This document shows positions 1 to 13,718 of a DNA stretch of 56,675 bases, one piece after another. The notes beneath the pieces are model-generated. The model worked only from the letters and a program-made list of their open reading frames with translations. It was not told the DNA's origin and searched no databases. The translations under genes were made by a program, and so were the position numbers. Source of the stretch: a virus (Duplodnaviria > Caudoviricetes); IMG/VR virus record IMGVR_UViG_3300044953_000632, positions 1-56,675 of that record. One strand, written 5' to 3'. Each line of letters starts with the position of its first letter. The stretch's first letter is position 1.

Positions 1-14
1 CCTAATAAGGTGAT

Positions 15-274
15 GCTAAAGGATACCCCCCTAGTTTAGGCTAGAGGGGTCCTGAGTGTTTTTAATGAACTAGCCACATCCACACTCAAAAAGTGCTAGT
101 CTTCCGACTCAGAGATTATCTTCCCTAAAGGATAGTCTTCTACATAAGTCCTCTTGGTATTTTATCTCCTTTAGCCATCCTAAAATGGCATGTCGAATAA
201 TTGTGTGTCTTCTTGACATCTCTTAAGAACCGCTTACGATTATTAGAGATGCCAAGTAAGAAAATAACAATCCT
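15..274 (-). ncRNA. Putative structured ncRNA, copy 1 of a tandem pair (probably truncated by the window edge)
   Basis: Shares ordered conserved blocks with 323-574. Predicted stems 212-223/245-256 and 68-77/93-101, and a loop 82-88 pairing with 53-59 (pseudoknot). Most non-Watson-Crick positions read as G-U on the minus strand. Confidence 0.6.
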
Positions 275-293
275 CCATTTCTAGATACCAAAT

Positions 294-574
294 GGTACCC
301 TTTAGGTGCACCGTTATGTGCAGCTAAAGGGTACCCCCTAGTTTAGGGTTTAGGCTAGGGGGGTCCTGAGTGTTTTTCTTTTAGACTATCCAACATTTAC
401 ACTCCAAATGATGGCAGTCTCTCGACCAGGATAGTCTTCTACCGTCGTAGTTGACATCCTTTTTCTCTTTAGCCACCCTAAAATGGCAATGTCAGGGCTG
501 TCGAGTGTCTTCTTGACATCTCTAATAACCGCTTACGATTATTAGAGATACCAAGTAAGAAAATAACAATCCTC
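294..574 (-). ncRNA. Putative structured ncRNA, copy 2
   Basis: Stems 512-528/539-555 and 383-398/405-420, loop 399-404 pairing with 368-373, and terminal hairpin 294-335. Starts immediately after the stop codon of ORF 575-973. Confidence 0.6.
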
Positions 575-973
575 TTACTTGACACCTGGGAGAATGAAAA
601 AGTACCTACAGGGTATTTCGCCTGTAGATACCGCGCTAACCCACAAATCAATATTACAATGATCAAAGTCGGGGTCAGATCCTTTGATCAAGGGAGATAC
701 CTTCATGAAACAGTTTATTAGCGGGTGTTTCACTTCCACTAAATCAACTTGAAGGATACTCTGGTTCCTCCATGTATAAACGGATATACATGAAACGCAG
801 CCTATAGAACTGTACAGTTCTACAGGAATACCTATGCTTATAACCCTATTTATACTCGCATAGTCGAGTTGAGGGGAAGAAATGTTTTTTAGGCACTTCT
901 TCCCCTCGGAGACAATGTACTTGTTACTGATGATCCTTCTGGTAGTCACGCCAGCAAGAATCGTCGCCCTCAA
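575..973 (-). CDS. Hypothetical protein
   Basis: 132-aa ORF co-oriented with and overlapping the upstream gene; start uncertain. Confidence 0.5.
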   Translation of the reverse strand: MRATILAGVTTRRIISNKYIVSEGKKCLKNISSPQLDYASINRVISIGIPVELYSSIGCVSCISVYTWRNQSILQVDLVEVKHPLINCFMKVSPLIKGSDPDFDHCNIDLWVSAVSTGEIPCRYFFILPGVK

Positions 974-1313
974 ACGGGGAATCTCCCATCAACCGGGGGT
1001 CGATAGGAGTGTTTGGCGTATTGGAGGCGTTTGCTTCTCCCAAACCCATGATCTGATTCAGAGAGGGATCTGAATTTTGTATCATAGGTTTGAACTTCTG
1101 CTGCAACTTCCTCATTTCCTCGTGAGCTGCAGCGTACGAAACTGTTTTCCAGAATCCGGCTTTAGTTTTCACTATTCCGGACGCCCAATTGCAGAACCGG
1201 AGGATGACCTGTGCATCCTCGGACATGGCATCATCAAGGCTGTTGTTGTCATGAGTGTACCATGCGTTCTTAAAGAGCGACAACGTCACGAACTTAGGTG
1301 GCGTTACATTCAC
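924..1313 (-). CDS. Hypothetical protein
   Basis: 129-aa ORF whose start overlaps the lysozyme stop by 4 bp. Confidence 0.65.
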   Translation of the reverse strand: MNVTPPKFVTLSLFKNAWYTHDNNSLDDAMSEDAQVILRFCNWASGIVKTKAGFWKTVSYAAAHEEMRKLQQKFKPMIQNSDPSLNQIMGLGEANASNTPNTPIDPRLMGDSPFEGDDSCWRDYQKDHQ

Positions 1314-1702
1314 TTGAGCTCCCTTCTGACCTTGGCCCAGTAGGCCTCGGTCTTCTTGTTAAGGTGACCCCTGGGACCACCATTGTGTATACGTGCGTAC
1401 ACTTCATTTGAGACCCCCTTGGGAGCGTAGCGTTTCATGTAGGCTCGTACGATCTTGCAAGAGTACTCTGGGTTGTAGCAGTCGGCGTATGTGCCGCCGA
1501 TGCTCTTGTCGTATTCAACAGCATCCCTCCAGTATCCGTAATGGATTTGGTAGGGACCAATCGCTCGACCATTGTCTCCAACGGCTTTGTCGTTGCCGCT
1601 AGATTCTACTTGACGAATTGCCGCAAGCAGCTCATCTGATTGGCCGTACGACGGCGGGCAGAACAGAAGGCTGGCGACCATGATGCACACAAGCTTTTTC
1701 AT
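1310..1702 (-). CDS. Lysozyme-fold muramidase (i-type/destabilase-like) with N-terminal signal peptide; candidate endolysin
   Basis: AIRQVESSG (catalytic Glu), GPYQIHYGYW and ARIHNGGP motifs. Start moved to 1702 (MKKLVCIMVASLLFCPPSYG) because an AGGAGA RBS precedes it. Confidence 0.8.
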   Translation of the reverse strand: MKKLVCIMVASLLFCPPSYGQSDELLAAIRQVESSGNDKAVGDNGRAIGPYQIHYGYWRDAVEYDKSIGGTYADCYNPEYSCKIVRAYMKRYAPKGVSNEVYARIHNGGPRGHLNKKTEAYWAKVRRELK

Positions 1703-1850
1703 ACCATTGTCTCCTATGTTAAAGCAGCTGCAAACCAGGAGGAACGCCCTCATGGTTAAACCTGGATCTTATGCTCCTTAAGATCTAAGATTTAGAGAAA
1801 GATGAAGACAACCCTCGGAGTTTAACCTGGCGAGAAGGGCTGTTTGGGGG

Positions 1851-1881
1851 ATGTAATACTGACCTTAGACCAGTATTACAT
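1851..1881. other. Intergenic hairpin
   Basis: Perfect 11-bp stem ATGTAATACTG/CAGTATTACAT upstream of the lysozyme operon. Confidence 0.5.
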
Positions 1882-1907
1882 AATACTAACTTATTACATG
1901 GTTAATT

Positions 1908-2129
1908 TTAGTATATATCGTCATCGTCGTCATCGTCGTTTTCCTCTATTTCGACGATGAAATTTGGCGACTTTTTATTAGTTTTTTTGGCAGTATAGCA
2001 TTGTTCACCAATTATGCTCAAGTTATTTGAGAAATTAAGCTGAGCTTTTTCGTAGTCTTTCTTGGTTATATATGTAGATACTATTATGTCGACGTACGAA
2101 AAGTTGTTTTCTTTTTTTCGTCTGCCCAT
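1908..2129 (-). CDS. Small hypothetical protein (basic N-terminus, acidic C-terminus)
   Basis: 73-aa ORF with an AGGT element upstream; ends in a poly-Asp tail. Confidence 0.6.
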   Translation of the reverse strand: MGRRKKENNFSYVDIIVSTYITKKDYEKAQLNFSNNLSIIGEQCYTAKKTNKKSPNFIVEIEENDDDDDDDIY

Positions 2130-3097: not shown

Positions 3098-4039
3098 CTA
3101 CCATGGCACAACCTTGCACCAATCCAGGAGCCGCTTCGCTGCATACTTGCCAATAACGCCCTCGATTCGTTCAACTTCTCCCCCTATGTCCTTAAAGGGC
3201 ATATGTCCCTTATTACATAAAGGGCATAGTATGCTCCCTTTTGGAACATTTTGCAAGGGGGAATGAGAAGAAAGCAAGCCAAAAATGGCAAGAGAAAAAT
3301 CCGCCGCCTCCTGAGAAGAACCTTCAACCGGCGCACCCCACGAGACGACGGTGCCGTTCGCCAGCCGGGCAGCTGTGCGAAAACGGCACGCCGCGACCCG
3401 CACCACACCAGTCAGATCTTCTGGCACATCCGTTTGGCCGTGGTCGTTCCACCCCCATGCAACGATGGTGCCGTCCGACTTGAGCGCAACTGTGTGGTGA
3501 ACGCCAGCCGCGACTTGCACCACGCCCATCAGGCCTTTTGGCACATCCGTTTGGCCGTTAATGCCCCACCCCCACGCCACAACAGTACCGTTCGACCTCA
3601 ACGCAACTATGTGGTAAGCGCCCGCCACGACTTGCACCACGCCCGTCAGGCCTTTTGGCACATCCGTTTGGCTGCTTCCGCTGTTCCCCCACACGACGAC
3701 GGTGCCGTCCGACTTGAGCGCAACTGTGTGTGCATAGCCCGTCGCGACTTGCACTACGCCCGTCAGGCCTTTTGGCACATCCGTTTGGCCGTTCTCGTTG
3801 TACCCCCACGCGACGACTGTGCCGTCCGACTTGAGAGCAACTGTGTGGCCCCAGCCAGCCGCGACTTGCACCACGCCCGTCAGGCCTTTTGGCACATCTA
3901 TCGCAACATCTCTTTGGCGGGCGTTGTTGTACCCCCACACCACAACAGTACCATCCGACTTGAGCGCAACTATGTATCCACGGCCCGGCTCAACTTGCAA
4001 AATACCTGTGGAATCGACGAGTTCGCTAGATGCTTCCAT
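3098..4039 (-). CDS. RCC1/BLIP-II-like beta-propeller repeat protein with C-terminal CxxC tail
   Basis: About six 39-aa repeats (VxQVAAGxxHTVALKSDGTVVxWGxxxxGQT), AGGAGA RBS, and C-terminal CPLC. Confidence 0.85.
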   Translation of the reverse strand: MEASSELVDSTGILQVEPGRGYIVALKSDGTVVVWGYNNARQRDVAIDVPKGLTGVVQVAAGWGHTVALKSDGTVVAWGYNENGQTDVPKGLTGVVQVATGYAHTVALKSDGTVVVWGNSGSSQTDVPKGLTGVVQVVAGAYHIVALRSNGTVVAWGWGINGQTDVPKGLMGVVQVAAGVHHTVALKSDGTIVAWGWNDHGQTDVPEDLTGVVRVAACRFRTAARLANGTVVSWGAPVEGSSQEAADFSLAIFGLLSSHSPLQNVPKGSILCPLCNKGHMPFKDIGGEVERIEGVIGKYAAKRLLDWCKVVPW

Positions 4040-4113
4040 TGGTCTCCTTCGAGGGGTTATATTGTTTTGGCTATTCGGCAGAGTTGCCGAAATACCTATA
4101 ACTCCTCTTCTAT

Positions 4114-4142
4114 ATAGTGACTCAATATGAGGCTATTTTTAG
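4114..4142 (-). promoter_or_regulatory. Cassette promoter CTAAAA-N17-CACTAT
   Basis: Same architecture as six other sites in the window. Confidence 0.6.
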
Positions 4143-4160
4143 TCTAATTATTTAATAGCT

Positions 4161-4193
4161 AAAAAAAACCTGAGTACGTCGGAGTACTCAGGT
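4161..4193 (-). terminator. Intrinsic terminator of cassette 2
   Basis: Same hairpin and T-run as 2974-3007. Confidence 0.8.
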
Positions 4194-4221
4194 CTGAGCA
4201 CGCCGGGCTGGGCGTACTCAG

Positions 4222-4788
4222 TTAGTTCGCGGGGACTCTTCCCCACGCAACAACGGTGCCGTCCTGCTTCCAGGCAACTGTGTGCTCCTCGCCCGCTGAG
4301 ACTTCCACCACGCCCGTCAGATCTTCTGGCACAGTGGTTTGGCCCCAGCCGTTGTCCCCCCAACATACGACGGTGCCGTCCGACTTGAGCGCAACTGTGT
4401 GTAACTCGCCCGCCGCGACTTGCACAACGTCCGTCAGGCCTTTTGGCACACTCGTTTGGCCCCTGCCGTTCCCGCCCCACTCAACAACGGTGCCGTCCGA
4501 CTTGAGCGCAACTGTGTGTACATAGCCCGCCGCGACTTGCACAACGTCCGTCAGGCCTTTTGGCACATCCGTTTGGCCGCAGCCGTTCCACCCCCACACC
4601 ACAACAGTACCATCCGACTTCACAGCAACTGTGTGTGCTTCGCCCGCCGCGACTTGCACCACACCAGTCAGATCTTCTGGCACAGTGGTTTGGCCACTGC
4701 CGTTCCCGCCCCACTCAACAACGGTGCCGTCCGACTTGAGCGCAACTGTGTGGCAACTGGGATCCCACTTAAATGTCTTCACAAGCAT
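4222..4788 (-). CDS. RCC1-like repeat protein (about 4.5 repeats)
   Basis: Same 39-aa repeats. Start moved to MLVKTF because the longer ORF runs through the leader hairpin and promoter. Confidence 0.8.
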   Translation of the reverse strand: MLVKTFKWDPSCHTVALKSDGTVVEWGGNGSGQTTVPEDLTGVVQVAAGEAHTVAVKSDGTVVVWGWNGCGQTDVPKGLTDVVQVAAGYVHTVALKSDGTVVEWGGNGRGQTSVPKGLTDVVQVAAGELHTVALKSDGTVVCWGDNGWGQTTVPEDLTGVVEVSAGEEHTVAWKQDGTVVAWGRVPAN

Positions 4789-4865
4789 TTGTGTTCTCTT
4801 TCTGAGGTCTATATTGTTTTGGCAGTCCGACAACGTTGTCGGAATACCTATAGGACCTCCATGCA

Positions 4866-4894
4866 CTTATATCACAATATAAGGCTATTTTTAG
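4866..4894 (-). promoter_or_regulatory. Cassette promoter CTAAAA-N17-TATAAG with extended TG
   Basis: Repeated motif with 17-bp spacer. Confidence 0.7.
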
Positions 4895-4953: not shown

Positions 4954-5038
4954 GAAATAACCCTAGCGTTTTGCCGGTGCAGCCGTTGGCTCCCCTTGCA
5001 AATTAGAACGATAGGGTCTTTACTTGCTTCTCTGACAC

Positions 5039-5980
5039 TCAGCGATTCCACCACCAGCTGAAAAACTGACCCCAGCTGGGATTGGCAAATGACTCAAGCT
5101 CACGCTCGTCATTTATTCGCTCGCTTTGGATGACCTCCACGACTTCTGCACAGCGAGGCTCCCCCTTGCTAGCGAAGGACTCGATGACGCCCTCGTACTC
5201 GGGAAGATGAAGAGTTTCCTGATCGAGAACATGCTTGGTAAAGATACTACCAAGTCTAGAGACCTTGGAGGTCTTCAAGCGCTTCAATTCAGGCATGTCT
5301 TCACTTTCCAAATCAGCATATGCCGCCACCATGGTTTTGCCAAAATGGGGTACCATTTTGACTCCAGCATCCGTTGCCTCCGTGTAAAGAGTTGAATAGT
5401 CCTCACCGGAGTATAGGGGAACGAGCTCGGTCAGGATCTGGCTAGTGCTGATTTGAGCTTTTTGGCGTTCCTGCGTCTTCAGAAGACGACGGTCAACCTG
5501 TATCGCTGCCAAGTTTGCAGATTTGATCCGATCTGACAAACTTTGTGGAACCTTCGACTTGAGTCCATCCTTGTCCGAACGTATCTCGTCCTTGAGTTTA
5601 GGCGAAAGGAGCCAATCGAGATCGTGATCTGCAGGATCGCGCCAGACGATGTCATCTGATCCGAAGTTGTGATGGCGCGTTCGGAAGATGTTGAGATTCT
5701 GAATTGAGTCTCCCAATATGACTAGGAGGGTTTTGTTCTCGTCGACCGAAAGGAGCCAATCGAGATCGTGATCTGCAGGATCGCGCCAGAGGAGCGATCC
5801 GGTTGGAACCTCAGTAGCCGGAGCCGGGGCCTGGGCCTGAGTAGTGGAGATCTTGCTGTCTTGCGCCGCTACGGTAATAGGGGCAACGAGCATAGAAATC
5901 ACGAATGGGCCCACGAAACCGACAAAACAACCAACAACAAAAGTTACGGTGTGCGTGAAGATGCCTCTGATAACTGACAT
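5039..5980 (-). CDS. Membrane-anchored or exported hypothetical protein with a duplicated 14-aa motif
   Basis: Hydrophobic N-terminus; WRDPADHDLDWLLS occurs twice. True start MSVIRG follows AGGAGA. Confidence 0.75.
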   Translation of the reverse strand: MSVIRGIFTHTVTFVVGCFVGFVGPFVISMLVAPITVAAQDSKISTTQAQAPAPATEVPTGSLLWRDPADHDLDWLLSVDENKTLLVILGDSIQNLNIFRTRHHNFGSDDIVWRDPADHDLDWLLSPKLKDEIRSDKDGLKSKVPQSLSDRIKSANLAAIQVDRRLLKTQERQKAQISTSQILTELVPLYSGEDYSTLYTEATDAGVKMVPHFGKTMVAAYADLESEDMPELKRLKTSKVSRLGSIFTKHVLDQETLHLPEYEGVIESFASKGEPRCAEVVEVIQSERINDERELESFANPSWGQFFSWWWNR

Positions 5981-10761: not shown

Positions 10762-12525
10762 TTAAACACCATTAGAGCTATAGGGGTGTTGATAGACTTC
10801 CGATAACTCTTCGTCATCTTGAGCACTACTCCTCCTCAGGATATGGTCCAACTCTTCAAATTCTTTATTTATTGTTATTGAAGATAAAGCAAGATTGTTG
10901 GCCTTGTTTATATGAAATATAACTCCTTGTTTGGCAAGGAGCTCTGAGACTTTTTCGTGCGCAGCTTCCATCGGCATACAGCATACGACATTATTGCTCA
11001 GTTTCAAGTTTATCTTTGTGCGGTCGGCTTTTAAAACATCAGACGACGTTCCAATAGGGCCCAGAAAGTGCTCAATATGCGCTATATTCATCAAGCCCGT
11101 ACTGTAGCAAAGCAATAAGGTAATGTCTGGACGTCTTGTCGTAAACATACCATTTGGATCAACGGAATAATACAAAATTTTTGTATTATTACAGAATTTG
11201 CTTGCAATTGGTACAAACTTTTGGAATACGCCACAGCTATCAAACGTAGGCATTACTCCCAATGCCAAACATGCTTTCACCGGGAACATCTCGGGGCTAA
11301 GTCGTCGTGAAGAGTATCTGCTGTTTGGCCACTCGAGACTGTTGACCGCTGAGACGTATTGCCCGTACTCGCTAGTGTTAGCCAAGATAATTCTTTGCAG
11401 ATTGTTAAAAAAGAATTCCAAGCCTTTTCTGCACAGTTCCAGCAAGCGAATATTGGCGAACACAGGCAGATCGCAATACAGTTTTTCCATGTTGCTGGAT
11501 CTTCTGCTACTCCCCATCAGCGAAGCTAGCGTATGGTGCTGGAGAGAGATAGGCGACTCCTGGGATTCAAACCAGTGGTGGTCAAGGGTATATGGCCACT
11601 TGGAGTGCTTATTGGGTTTTCGCCACTTGGTCGCGCACGTTTCATCGAGGGCCTTGTCGGTTCTTTCTAAGTAAATAGAGATCCTCGGGACCACATTGTT
11701 CCATCTTATGCTGCAAATCTGATTGTTTATTTCCGTTTCCGATTTGCAGCATTCGATGAATTTTGCATATATAGAGGTTGTGCTATTTTCTTTGTTTTGC
11801 ATGAACTGCTCTAGAGGGTAGTTACAACTGCACAAGGCTTCCAGCAAGCCTTTACTCTCGGGCAGCTTTATGTAGCCCATGGCGAATGCCTTAACCACGT
11901 CCTCAGCCTTGCACTTGAAGCCTCTAGACGAGCTACCAGGGTAAAATATCTTGGAGTTCATAGGAGTCGCCTTGAGCATTTTGAGACACTGAGCACTCAA
12001 CTTAATTTGATTCTTTTTGAAGTCCTCATTTGTTTTCACCATTTTAACTTGTCTTGGCGGACAGTGCATACCTGGTTCGGCATCTGCCAAATTGTCTATG
12101 GTTTCCCCATCACCATAATTCAACATTGACGAGGCAGATTTAGCTATGCGGCAGAAATAGAATCCGTAGATTCCGCCGCCTTGACTCCAACCAATGTGCA
12201 AAGGTACATAAAGCATCTCGCCCACCATGAAGGCAGCTGGCGGCTGAGACTTTTGATTGATGTTAGTATCCAAATATGCAGTTGAGCCATTTAAACAGCA
12301 CTCAAAGTAGTCCGGAGGCAGATCGAACAGCATTTTGGAGTTTGTAAATTTTTTAAGAAAAGATTGAATGTCTATGAAGTTTTTTTGTAAAGATACGAAG
12401 TATTTCATGTTTTTGCTCCAATAGGGGGGTGCACTAACTTCACATGCACCCCCTCTTGTTATTTTTAATTGTTTATTCTGATTGTTTTGCCGTATGGGGC
12501 TACGACGTCTGAATTCATTACCCAC
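10762..12525 (-). CDS. Large hypothetical protein (start may be ~12408, MKYFV)
   Basis: 587-aa ORF; no motif recognised. Confidence 0.7.
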   Translation of the reverse strand: MGNEFRRRSPIRQNNQNKQLKITRGGACEVSAPPYWSKNMKYFVSLQKNFIDIQSFLKKFTNSKMLFDLPPDYFECCLNGSTAYLDTNINQKSQPPAAFMVGEMLYVPLHIGWSQGGGIYGFYFCRIAKSASSMLNYGDGETIDNLADAEPGMHCPPRQVKMVKTNEDFKKNQIKLSAQCLKMLKATPMNSKIFYPGSSSRGFKCKAEDVVKAFAMGYIKLPESKGLLEALCSCNYPLEQFMQNKENSTTSIYAKFIECCKSETEINNQICSIRWNNVVPRISIYLERTDKALDETCATKWRKPNKHSKWPYTLDHHWFESQESPISLQHHTLASLMGSSRRSSNMEKLYCDLPVFANIRLLELCRKGLEFFFNNLQRIILANTSEYGQYVSAVNSLEWPNSRYSSRRLSPEMFPVKACLALGVMPTFDSCGVFQKFVPIASKFCNNTKILYYSVDPNGMFTTRRPDITLLLCYSTGLMNIAHIEHFLGPIGTSSDVLKADRTKINLKLSNNVVCCMPMEAAHEKVSELLAKQGVIFHINKANNLALSSITINKEFEELDHILRRSSAQDDEELSEVYQHPYSSNGV

Positions 12526-13718
12526 AGTACGTCGAATTTTGGGTCATCGCCAAAATCGCCGTATCCGTCGGTAAAGTAAACAAGCACGTCTACATCGGGC
12601 TTGTTTTCTTTCAAATGGTCCATGACCGGAACAAATGAAGTTCCTCCGCCGCCAATAAGCGACGGAATGGGCTCATCGTGTCGGACCCATTTTGCTCTGT
12701 TAACATTGTAATCAGCTTCCATCAAATAAACAGGCACTTTATACAGCTTTCTAATGGCATCCATTTCCGACACCCCCTTCGTTATGTCACTTCGCGACAT
12801 TGATCCAGAGGTGTCTATGGAGAACGCAATGCTGGGTTTTTTAGCCCCTGTTCTGCTTGTAAGAATTATGTCTTGATACAAATACCTTCGATTAGGCGGA
12901 GTGAATGTATACCTGTTTTTGCTATTCATGCAAAACTTTTGCCTGAGGTAGTATGCCAGGACGTTGTACCAGGCCACTTCAGGATTTATCAATTTATCTA
13001 TTTGACGCTCCATGAACTTTGGACAATTGCCCGCCATTCTACTCCTAGTGGCTGCCTCTAAGCCAGCCTCAGCCCATTCCTTGCCGTCTTTCGGAGTGTC
13101 CTCGGACTTATCCCTTATGTTGTCTCCTTTAGGCTCTTCTCCTGGCTCGAAATCGACGATGTCGTTGCTGTCATTTAGACCTGAACTTTTGTTTTTACTA
13201 TTGCTTTTTTGACTCTTATTTACCTTGTCTACATAGGTTGCCGCCTCTGCAGCCAACTTGTCGTACACCTGCTCGGTGGTCACAGAGTTATGGTCTATAT
13301 CTAGATTTATGGATGTGCAAGTAACGTATTTAGATATGTATTCATTAGAAATGTTGTTTTCATTGAAATGATCTTTAAGCATTTCGTTGATTAATACATC
13401 GCCAGCGATGTTCCACATGTGGAGATCTCTTGCTCCACGTCTGTTGTGGTGGTCTAGTAGCAAGTGCATAACCTCGTGGGCAAGGACAAAATGAATGTGG
13501 TTATCGCACAGAGAATCGAAAAACGACTTGCTAAAATAGATGTTGCCGTGTTTGTCGATGCAGGCTGTAGAAACCTTATCGGTATCTGCAATCAGCTTAA
13601 TATTGCACTTTTCAATCAGAAACGCCCAAAACGGAAAGTCTTGGAACATCCTGAACATACATTTGTTCATTTTCTTTCTGGCAGCCTGCATATCAGTAGG
13701 ATTTATTTCACTCATCAT
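12465..13718 (-). CDS. Metallopeptidase (HExxH) plus VWA domain protein, DUF2201-like
   Basis: LAHEVMH; MIDAS motif IDTSGSM, GGGT and FTDG. Confidence 0.85.
   Translation of the reverse strand: MMSEINPTDMQAARKKMNKCMFRMFQDFPFWAFLIEKCNIKLIADTDKVSTACIDKHGNIYFSKSFFDSLCDNHIHFVLAHEVMHLLLDHHNRRGARDLHMWNIAGDVLINEMLKDHFNENNISNEYISKYVTCTSINLDIDHNSVTTEQVYDKLAAEAATYVDKVNKSQKSNSKNKSSGLNDSNDIVDFEPGEEPKGDNIRDKSEDTPKDGKEWAEAGLEAATRSRMAGNCPKFMERQIDKLINPEVAWYNVLAYYLRQKFCMNSKNRYTFTPPNRRYLYQDIILTSRTGAKKPSIAFSIDTSGSMSRSDITKGVSEMDAIRKLYKVPVYLMEADYNVNRAKWVRHDEPIPSLIGGGGTSFVPVMDHLKENKPDVDVLVYFTDGYGDFGDDPKFDVLWVMNSDVVAPYGKTIRINN

Follow-up and report, generated by a model that had tools for sequence, protein, structure and literature searches.

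A duplicated, structured non-coding unit beside a Pistol ribozyme homologue in a lake-water phage: a candidate new phage RNA

GOLLD and ROOL are orphan large structured non-coding RNAs (ncRNAs) of phages and bacteria that were found by comparative genomics, and the ToxI RNAs of type III toxin-antitoxin systems consist of antitoxin RNA repeats of ~36 nucleotides (nt) located beside an endoribonuclease toxin gene. Here, we analysed a repeat unit of ~300-325 nt that is present in two tandem, ~80% identical copies at the beginning of the IMG/VR virus record IMGVR_UViG_3300044953_000632, whose entire 56,675 nt (completeness rating 32%) are called the window hereafter. The unit is probably a new, narrowly distributed phage RNA. 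Our favoured reading, to which we give a probability of about 0.5, is that of a lineage-restricted structured-ncRNA cassette encoded on the minus strand, with repeated terminators on either side and a second copy that arose through unequal recombination.

Like GOLLD and ROOL, the unit is long, multi-helix, non-coding and phage-borne, with a tRNA gene nearby in its only other carrier found in IMG/VR (a 30-kb record, L004). Unlike them, being shorter at ~300 nt, it is duplicated in tandem and has been seen only in two contigs and four lake runs, and it gives no Rfam match, the GOLLD and ROOL models included (gathering score or E <= 10). As in ToxI, non-coding repeats stand in tandem in phage-related DNA and vary in copy number, but the period is ~300 nt, there are two copies at most and no toxin gene, ToxN-like or other, was seen among the neighbours scanned, and a type III antitoxin array was therefore rejected. 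The unit shares with the Pistol ribozyme (RF02679), a homologue of which lies next to it, a possible hairpin-loop pseudoknot after an A-rich linker; it differs in having no RF02679 match and no P2 helix between the linker and the pseudoknot strand, and in being five times longer. Finally, the PeSL elements of T4-like phages (PMC4122927, PMC2839356) are described as motifs that combine a terminator with a promoter and mediate indels in hyperplastic regions. The region resembles them in its plasticity: a variable module is enclosed by repeated motifs that contain terminators, and recombination between repeats leads to gain, loss and swapping. Indeed, the terminator half, the repetition at module borders and the indels at those borders are all seen here, whereas the bracketed module is non-coding and the promoter half was not found (TTGACA without an acceptable -10).

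Two copies of a non-coding unit and their predicted fold

Seven direct-repeat families (D1-D7) connect positions 10-275 with 318-574, with a spacing of 298-314 nt and an identity of 86-100%, and the pairwise alignment of the two copies (mean column identity 80%) shows long identical blocks alternating with diverged or indel segments. A first-pass annotation of the window, made from the letters alone, had described two copies with fixed blocks and diverged segments; all of the blocks it named were recovered by the repeat families and the alignment, including the near-identical ~70-nt 3′ block (205-275 and 505-574; D6 and D1), and the repeat is established. Copy 2 is complete, from just past the T-run of the preceding terminator to its terminal hairpin (Table 1). 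Copy 1 has lost the 3′ arm of its terminal hairpin at the window edge; at its other end, the 5′ arm of hairpin H1 is missing, as is most of the terminator before it.

The repeat unit is non-coding. All frames of the region are rich in stops, and 18/18 frames of the three copies (the two of the window and that of L004) hold at least two kinds of stop codon; therefore, no single codon reassignment opens a frame. In addition, the spacings between blocks differ by 1, 8-9 and 15-16 nt, so that no reading frame is kept. Copy 2 had been said to start at the stop of the upstream operon, but the TAA at 575-577 closes a non-conserved open reading frame (ORF; 575-973, minus strand) that overlaps both the Pistol homologue and a terminator; the counterpart of this frame in L004 spans 83 codons from stop to stop, lacks the start present in the window and ends before the terminator. 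The last credible gene before copy 2 is 924-1313, followed by ~330 nt of conserved non-coding sequence with the Pistol homologue and the intrinsic terminator (601-632). The short ORFs that start at a shared AUG after hairpin H2 (MSRRH...; 36 codons long in copy 1, 13 in copy 2, 29 in L004) could suggest a small protein gene that was duplicated and then decayed, or one that uses an alternative genetic code. However, these peptides diverge right past their five common residues and stop at different points, the AUG sits inside H2 without a Shine-Dalgarno sequence, the indels between blocks are not multiples of three and the neighbouring genes of the window read normally in code 11. With stops in every frame, no frame kept and ORF 575-973 not conserved, a coding or recoded unit is extremely improbable and was dropped.

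Read from the minus strand, copy 2 has a minimum free energy of -121.9 kcal/mol (z -8.9) and the L004 unit of -119.7 kcal/mol (z -7.6); all z-scores compare single sequences with dinucleotide shuffles, and 0 of 100 shuffles folded as well in each case. The RNAalifold consensus of the three sequences comprises 95 pairs on the minus strand (-71.7 kcal/mol), ~14 of them G-U, compared with 64 pairs on the plus strand (-52.8 kcal/mol), and 92.8% of its cells are paired versus 41-46% when the partners are slid. A strong, partly compensated structure is established. Six pairs changed on both sides versus 3.4 +/- 1.2 in shuffles (21 of 500 shuffles reached six), a measure that is inflated by related sequences, as the tool itself warns; since only three related sequences are compared, the covariation is no more than suggestive. 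A stronger structural hint comes from the outer helix of H5, both arms of which (alignment columns ~135-145 and 183-201) are jointly missing from copy 2.

The modelled unit would start with a 5′ domain of two long hairpins (H1 and H2), continue with the small GCCAU hairpin H4 and then with a 3′ domain containing H5, a GAGUGU/ACACUC helix with an inner hairpin and the C/G-rich hairpin H7, and finish with the terminal hairpin H8. The long, GCCAU, C/G-rich and terminal hairpins listed in the first-pass annotation were each located (Table 1). A long-range 9-base-pair (bp) helix, GCUAAAGGA/UCCUUUAGC, in which one pair is compensated from A-U to G-C, closes the 3′ domain; the loops of H4 (UUUAGG) and H7 (CCUAAA) complement each other, a possible contact that is also invariant; and H8 displays two or three compensated pairs when compared with L004 4153-4195. 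Note that the 5′ arm of H8 is the same CCUUUAGC segment that is used in the long-range helix, and the two are therefore mutually exclusive.

Such an exclusion is what would be expected from a cis-acting leader or switch on a polycistronic minus-strand transcript, which would control downstream read-through, processing or stability (in L004, those of a small ORF and tRNA-Met) through alternative CUAAAGG/CCUUUAG pairings. Indeed, three CCUUUAG-like and three CUAAAGG-like segments alternate in the unit, which is located between two terminators and upstream of a gene and tRNA-Met, and the two adjacent long hairpins at its 5′ end may resemble processive-antitermination RNAs such as HK022 put. However, a terminator and another palindromic motif separate the L004 unit from the next gene, H8 is not followed by a U-run, no riboswitch, leader or T-box family matches, and tRNA-Met is found downstream in 6 of the 8 related loci scanned, although the unit is present in 0 of 38 other loci. 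We consider a switch of this kind as distinctly unlikely.

A conserved H-type pseudoknot had also been proposed, in which the loop of the GAGUGU hairpin pairs with ACACUC past an A-rich linker (9-10 nt in our analysis). The two motifs do pair in the three copies, and the loop lengths (L1 ~5, L2 ~4 and L3 9-10 nt in both copy types) make this pseudoknot sterically feasible in the model, but RNAalifold uses the same pairing in a nested 9-bp helix, and covariation is uninformative on the point because both strands are invariant in the three copies (6/6 pairs of stem S2 never vary). To call the pseudoknot conserved claims more than these data support. The hairpins that flank GAGUGU, described as different in sequence, are instead homologous, with four one-sided and no two-sided changes in stem S1.

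The minus strand fits the modelled fold somewhat better than the plus strand. Population variants, placed on the consensus helices by hand, agree with the first-pass remark that most mismatches become G-U on the minus strand and a few fit the plus strand, but they do not decide the matter. Five of them (34 G>A, 59 T>C, 71 T>C, 550 A>G and 551 C>T) switch a predicted minus-strand pair between Watson-Crick and G-U, those at 74 and 68/101 are weighed below, and variants 63 and 67 fall within the A-rich linker. The flanking terminators and the gene run 1310-45817, whose long ORFs are on the minus strand throughout and whose 3′ end is occupied by the repeat units, share their orientation with the favoured fold.

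Copy number and distribution of the unit

Exact-block scans of IMG/VR identified one other carrier, L004, whose plus strand corresponds to the minus strand of the window, and among the 60 stretches found by a 15-mer scan of the same collection, only L004 matches the unit with BLAST. An exact 22-mer had 0 matches in metagenome contigs, two blocks had 0 matches each in prokaryote genome contigs, and a 'distant'-mode blastn search of 50,697 phage records gave no match to the unit. The neighbouring phosphoesterase found nothing as a single-protein query; when a two-sequence alignment of it was used as an anchor, 39 loci were obtained (8 viral and 31 from metagenomes), some of which are the same contig in both collections and one of which (L071) is the L004 contig. 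The unit is absent from all 38 loci besides L071 according to BLAST, nhmmer --max and a covariance model of the 3′ domain (R1). Rfam 15 gave no match at gathering score in the whole window; the best matches inside the window units have E-values of 5.3-8.7, and the best in the L004 unit is RT-16 (18.9 bits versus a gathering score of 50, E 3.5). The first-pass annotation could not assign the unit to any known family, and its absence from known families is now established at gathering score. Because it is non-coding, strongly structured, minus-favouring and without an Rfam match, the unclassified unit is a fair candidate for a new phage ncRNA.

L004 contains a single unit at ~3873-4200, with no second copy in the whole record, and this unit is pieced together from segments that are copy-1-like and others that are copy-2-like. 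It is followed by a second terminator, a TTGACA palindromic motif, a 66-codon ORF, tRNA-Met (4522-4596) and small ORFs without families; moreover, the H1 motif recurs alone at 5435-5472, where it spans the stop codon of a gene. In the two other loci whose corresponding slot was inspected (L070 and L074), the slot is filled by other long hairpin-rich non-coding sequence. Just past tRNA-Met, a hairpin whose loop is conserved (GTTGATTTCACrATC) also occurs twice in L070 (12395-12615).

Part of the stretch is contained in 17 sequencing runs, all labelled as lake water metagenome, and contigs from four of them (X1-X4) were compared with window 1-1000. Contigs of X1 and X2 span the junction between copy 1 and copy 2, and those of X3 and X4 join 204 to 505 and omit 205-504, a one-copy form that is the product of recombination in an identical 19-nt block. 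In X1 and X2 contigs, L004-type sequence also flanks a terminator similar to 597-631 on either side (contig ends left loose at 597 and 631), which fits an order of last unit, terminator and next gene. Loose ends in the four runs also reveal at least one more version of the variable region, and one X2 contig passes from H1-H2 into other sequence. Copy-number polymorphism is established by these contigs, and the term 'array' used by the first-pass annotation overstates the case because both one-copy and two-copy forms occur in the lakes. Likewise, the multi-copy family that it inferred is reduced to two copies at most, and nothing points to an array extending beyond the window with more than two, given the single unit of L004, the one-copy form of X3 and X4 and the unit-terminator-gene order suggested by X1 and X2.

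Terminators, the Pistol homologue and the neighbouring genes

The L004 unit is preceded by an intrinsic terminator hairpin (3838-3869) and followed by a second one (~4214-4250) that is ~86% identical to the first, and both are near-identical to the terminator of the window (597-632); the flanking terminators are established features of the locus. They also support another explanation, namely that the region is a palindrome-rich regulatory or recombination cassette acting as DNA, like the PeSLs of T4-like phages, whose hairpins would be terminators, operators or protein sites and whose blocks would be kept by gene conversion. Repeated terminator-plus-palindrome motifs flank the L004 unit and the genes that follow it, and indels, a 1151-nt gene insertion, the 300-nt copy loss and a 32-nt palindrome insertion are all located in the region. 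Moreover, the L004 copy is a mosaic, H1 and H1-H2 are found as separate modules, both strands fold well, and heptamers of the CTAAAGG/CCTTTAG type alternate in orientation, and the first 330 nt of the 56.7-kb window contain 5 of its 15 exact occurrences. However, the minus-strand consensus is clearly better (95 versus 64 pairs, ~14 of them G-U), a long-range helix and the joint loss of both arms of a helix are unexpected for independent DNA sites, and the cassettes lack a convincing promoter half. The T4-like status of the phage is also unsupported, since its polymerase is annotated merely as 'DNA polymerase' by PHROG and a DnaB-like helicase is encoded as well. We therefore regard a purely DNA-level cassette as unlikely, although it deserves to be taken seriously.

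In L004, a terminator hairpin with a TTGACA palindrome (3838-3872, 4214-4290 and 5005-5060) precedes small genes and brackets the unit. No acceptable -10 accompanied TTGACA in these terminator cassettes, as none passed the sigma-70 scan on that strand, and the palindrome was rejected as a promoter: it occurs in only two places in L071 and, within three mismatches, nowhere before the window genes. On the plus strand, sigma-70-like matches lie in the H2 block (213-240 and 513-542; TTGACA, 16-18-nt spacer, TACGAT/GATTAT, 10/12). Sigma-70-like sites number 4 in 1400 nt versus 2.3 +/- 1.6 in shuffles, which is not above chance; if active, such a plus-strand match would yield an RNA antisense to the ribozyme region.

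A Pistol homologue is located ~230 nt upstream of the units. It accounts for the one notable Rfam signal close to the units. The Rfam model RF02679 aligns with its P1 and linker, with posterior '*', at 826-869 of the minus strand (25.7 bits, E 0.022) and also matches L004 (25.7 bits), both under the gathering score of 34.5, and a full Pistol (53.6 bits) is found at the syntenic place in 3 of the 8 related loci scanned (L069, L070 and L073). Both the window and L004 keep P1, the AUAAAUA linker and the pseudoknot strand intact, and in the window GCAUAG at 832-837 complements the CUAUGC loop of P1, which gives the 6-nt pseudoknot of Pistol. The window homologue is below the Rfam threshold because it is split by a 32-nt palindrome (800-831), which, as in L004, parts the pseudoknot strand from the P3-like hairpin. 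This insertion is polymorphic, since contigs in three lake runs (one each in X2, X3 and X4) skip exactly these 32 nt (joint 799 to 832). Past the P3-like hairpin, a by-eye reading gives GGA-ACC in the window and GGU-UACU in L070, the consensus being GGU. The ~170-200 nt between Pistol and the next terminator (window 640-770, minus strand) are nearly identical in L004, share the word GAAGTGAAACA with L070 11707-11880 and may be an RNA released by Pistol cleavage. In L070, three copies of a ~28-nt hairpin (CCCACAnAGATCGnCnGGTCTGTGTGGG) stand upstream of the intact Pistol (11249-11585), and a similar hairpin follows the 5′ half of Pistol in L080.

In the accessible parts of PMC4604425 and PMC6765202, Pistol RNAs are reported near phage genes and ribozyme genes near other ribozymes, and no biological role is stated there for Pistol. 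With these associations of self-cleaving ribozymes in mind, the unit could itself be, or contain, a new self-cleaving ribozyme or a ribozyme-associated RNA, whose tandem copies would be cut to unit length. Its proximity to Pistol and the feasible hairpin-loop pseudoknot after the A-rich linker, with equal loop lengths in both copies, go in this direction, but no known ribozyme family matches inside the unit even at E <= 10, no candidate cleavage site is conserved and there are two copies at most. Further RNA structures from the same ribozyme search did not cleave experimentally, according to the accessible parts of PMC6765202, and we judge this explanation very improbable. In a more speculative view, which is quite improbable in its entirety, the unit would be the first of a new class of ~300-nt phage RNAs acting with the adjacent Pistol, with its copy number and variable segments under arms-race selection; it could then be another catalytic RNA, or one that Pistol cleavage releases or activates.

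Regarding gene content, the window carries a module for replication and nucleotide metabolism, which encodes a DNA polymerase, a DnaB-like helicase, a ribonucleotide reductase and an SbcC-like protein. Since the window DNA downstream of copy 1 is missing, L004 stands in for the downstream neighbours, and 17 neighbouring ORFs from the window and L004 were scanned against PHROG and Pfam, some of them in both libraries. They include a phosphoesterase, a destabilase-type lysozyme, an RCC1-repeat protein and others without a family in either library. No reverse transcriptase, nuclease or RNA-binding gene was found among these 17 ORFs, and no toxin-like neighbour was detected with PHROG and Pfam, the PADLOC library not being searched; an RNA associated with a reverse transcriptase or retron, or a guide RNA of a nuclease, was rejected, with neither a reverse transcriptase nor an RNA-guided nuclease among these ORFs. 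A replication origin at the units is likewise disfavoured, as the cumulative GC skew of the window turns near 46-52 kb, away from the units.

Compared with L004, 1151 nt of the window (872-2022) replace 157 nt (3447-3603); they comprise a destabilase/SLT-type lysozyme gene (1310-1753) and a 129-amino-acid ORF (924-1313), and the lysozyme homologue of L004 and L070 is instead located downstream of tRNA-Met. Farther away on the minus strand, two RCC1-repeat (beta-propeller) genes (3098-4866) contain strongly repeated internal units of ~117 nt and have a GC content of 53-57% versus ~45% elsewhere in the window, and an HNH endonuclease gene (12465-13718; PHROG 1314, E 4e-77) overlaps the end of a 587-amino-acid ORF (10762-12525).

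Table 1. Features of the repeat units and of the adjacent Pistol region, in window coordinates.
Feature	Position	Strand	Remarks
Copy 1	1-289	minus	truncated by the window edge; cmsearch 202.8 bits, truncated at 3′ end
Copy 2	290-596	minus	complete; cmsearch 151.6 bits for the 3′ domain
H1, 13-bp hairpin with two G-U pairs	552-581	minus	in copy 1, reduced to 3′ arm and loop (253-273)
H2, long 14-20-bp hairpin	518-549 (copy 1: 218-250)	minus	
H4, GCCAU hairpin, loop UUUAGG	472-487 (copy 1: 174-189)	minus	
Long-range helix, 5′ strand (GCUAAAG...)	467-473, with ...CUUUAGC 323-331	minus	copy 1: 169-175 with 15-23
S1, hairpin around GAGUGU	383-420 (copy 1: 68-101)	minus	
GAGUGU	399-404 (copy 1: 82-87)	minus	
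ACACUC	368-373 (copy 1: 54-59)	minus	
H7, C/G-rich hairpin, loop CCUAAA	334-363 (copy 1: 26-49)	minus	duplicated in copy 2
H8, 18-bp terminal hairpin of copy 2	294-335	minus	inverted repeat of 18 nt, 94% complementary
Intrinsic terminator, 12-bp stem and T-run	597-632	minus	directly upstream of copy 2
Pistol homologue	771-869	minus	P1 854-869; AUAAAUA linker 847-853; pseudoknot strand 832-837; hairpin 771-792
Palindromic insertion, 32 nt	800-831		polymorphic; inside the Pistol homologue

The favoured reading and its biological meaning

According to the structured-RNA reading, the unit would be read from the minus strand, like every gene of the run that flanks it, and would occupy a hypervariable non-coding slot between the Pistol ribozyme and the tRNA-Met gene, bracketed by repeated terminator hairpins. 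Its two-copy state would have arisen by unequal homologous recombination, and the same process would have led to the one-copy and mosaic forms. Transcripts would come from polymerase reading through the upstream terminator or from a promoter that escaped recognition, RNA rather than DNA would be the functional form, and this RNA might act in trans, e.g., as a protein-binding decoy or scaffold during infection.

A number of observations weigh against this reading. An intrinsic terminator is located directly before the unit in both the window and L004, the sigma-70 scan of the minus strand between terminator and unit revealed no promoter in either of them, which speaks against independent expression, and none of the 17 runs holding the stretch is an RNA run. 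The plus strand also folds well (z -7.7 for copy 2 and -6.6 for the L004 unit), variants 74 C>T and 68 A>G with 101 C>T fit this strand better, and covariation among only three closely related, mosaic copies is not significant (21/500 shuffles). Furthermore, recombination or gene conversion between copies could produce identical blocks without selection, the patchwork nature of the L004 unit belongs here as well, and the isolated H1 of L004 and the H1-H2 of the X2 contig point to a string of separate regulatory hairpins instead of a single integrated fold.

Neither a partner gene nor a target was found for the unit among the 17 ORFs, in the window search or with RNAduplex, which also counts against the favoured reading. 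Indeed, a short-word BLAST search for targets of the variable segments in the rest of the window gave only chance-level matches (best, 12 nt with E 1.6), and the RNAduplex energies of the unit with tRNA-Met and the downstream leader equalled the shuffle means. The guide, decoy/antitoxin or template RNA envisaged by the first-pass annotation thus has no reverse transcriptase, nuclease, RNA-binding or toxin gene among the neighbours scanned and no target beyond chance in these searches. A protein sponge of the CsrB/RsmZ type (binding CsrA) was dropped, as GGA is not consistently enriched (5 versus 4.7 expected in copy 2, 9 versus 4.5 in copy 1 and 10 versus 5.3 in L004) and the GGA of the H4 loop is lost in copy 2.

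Altogether, the most useful new facts are the link to Pistol and the copy-number polymorphism. Related phages carry an intact or interrupted Pistol and 0, 1 or 2 units in the same slot before tRNA-Met, and therefore provide a natural experiment. If the unit is a real RNA, an unclassified multi-helix ncRNA, physically linked to a Pistol ribozyme, would be added to the few that come from large environmental phages.

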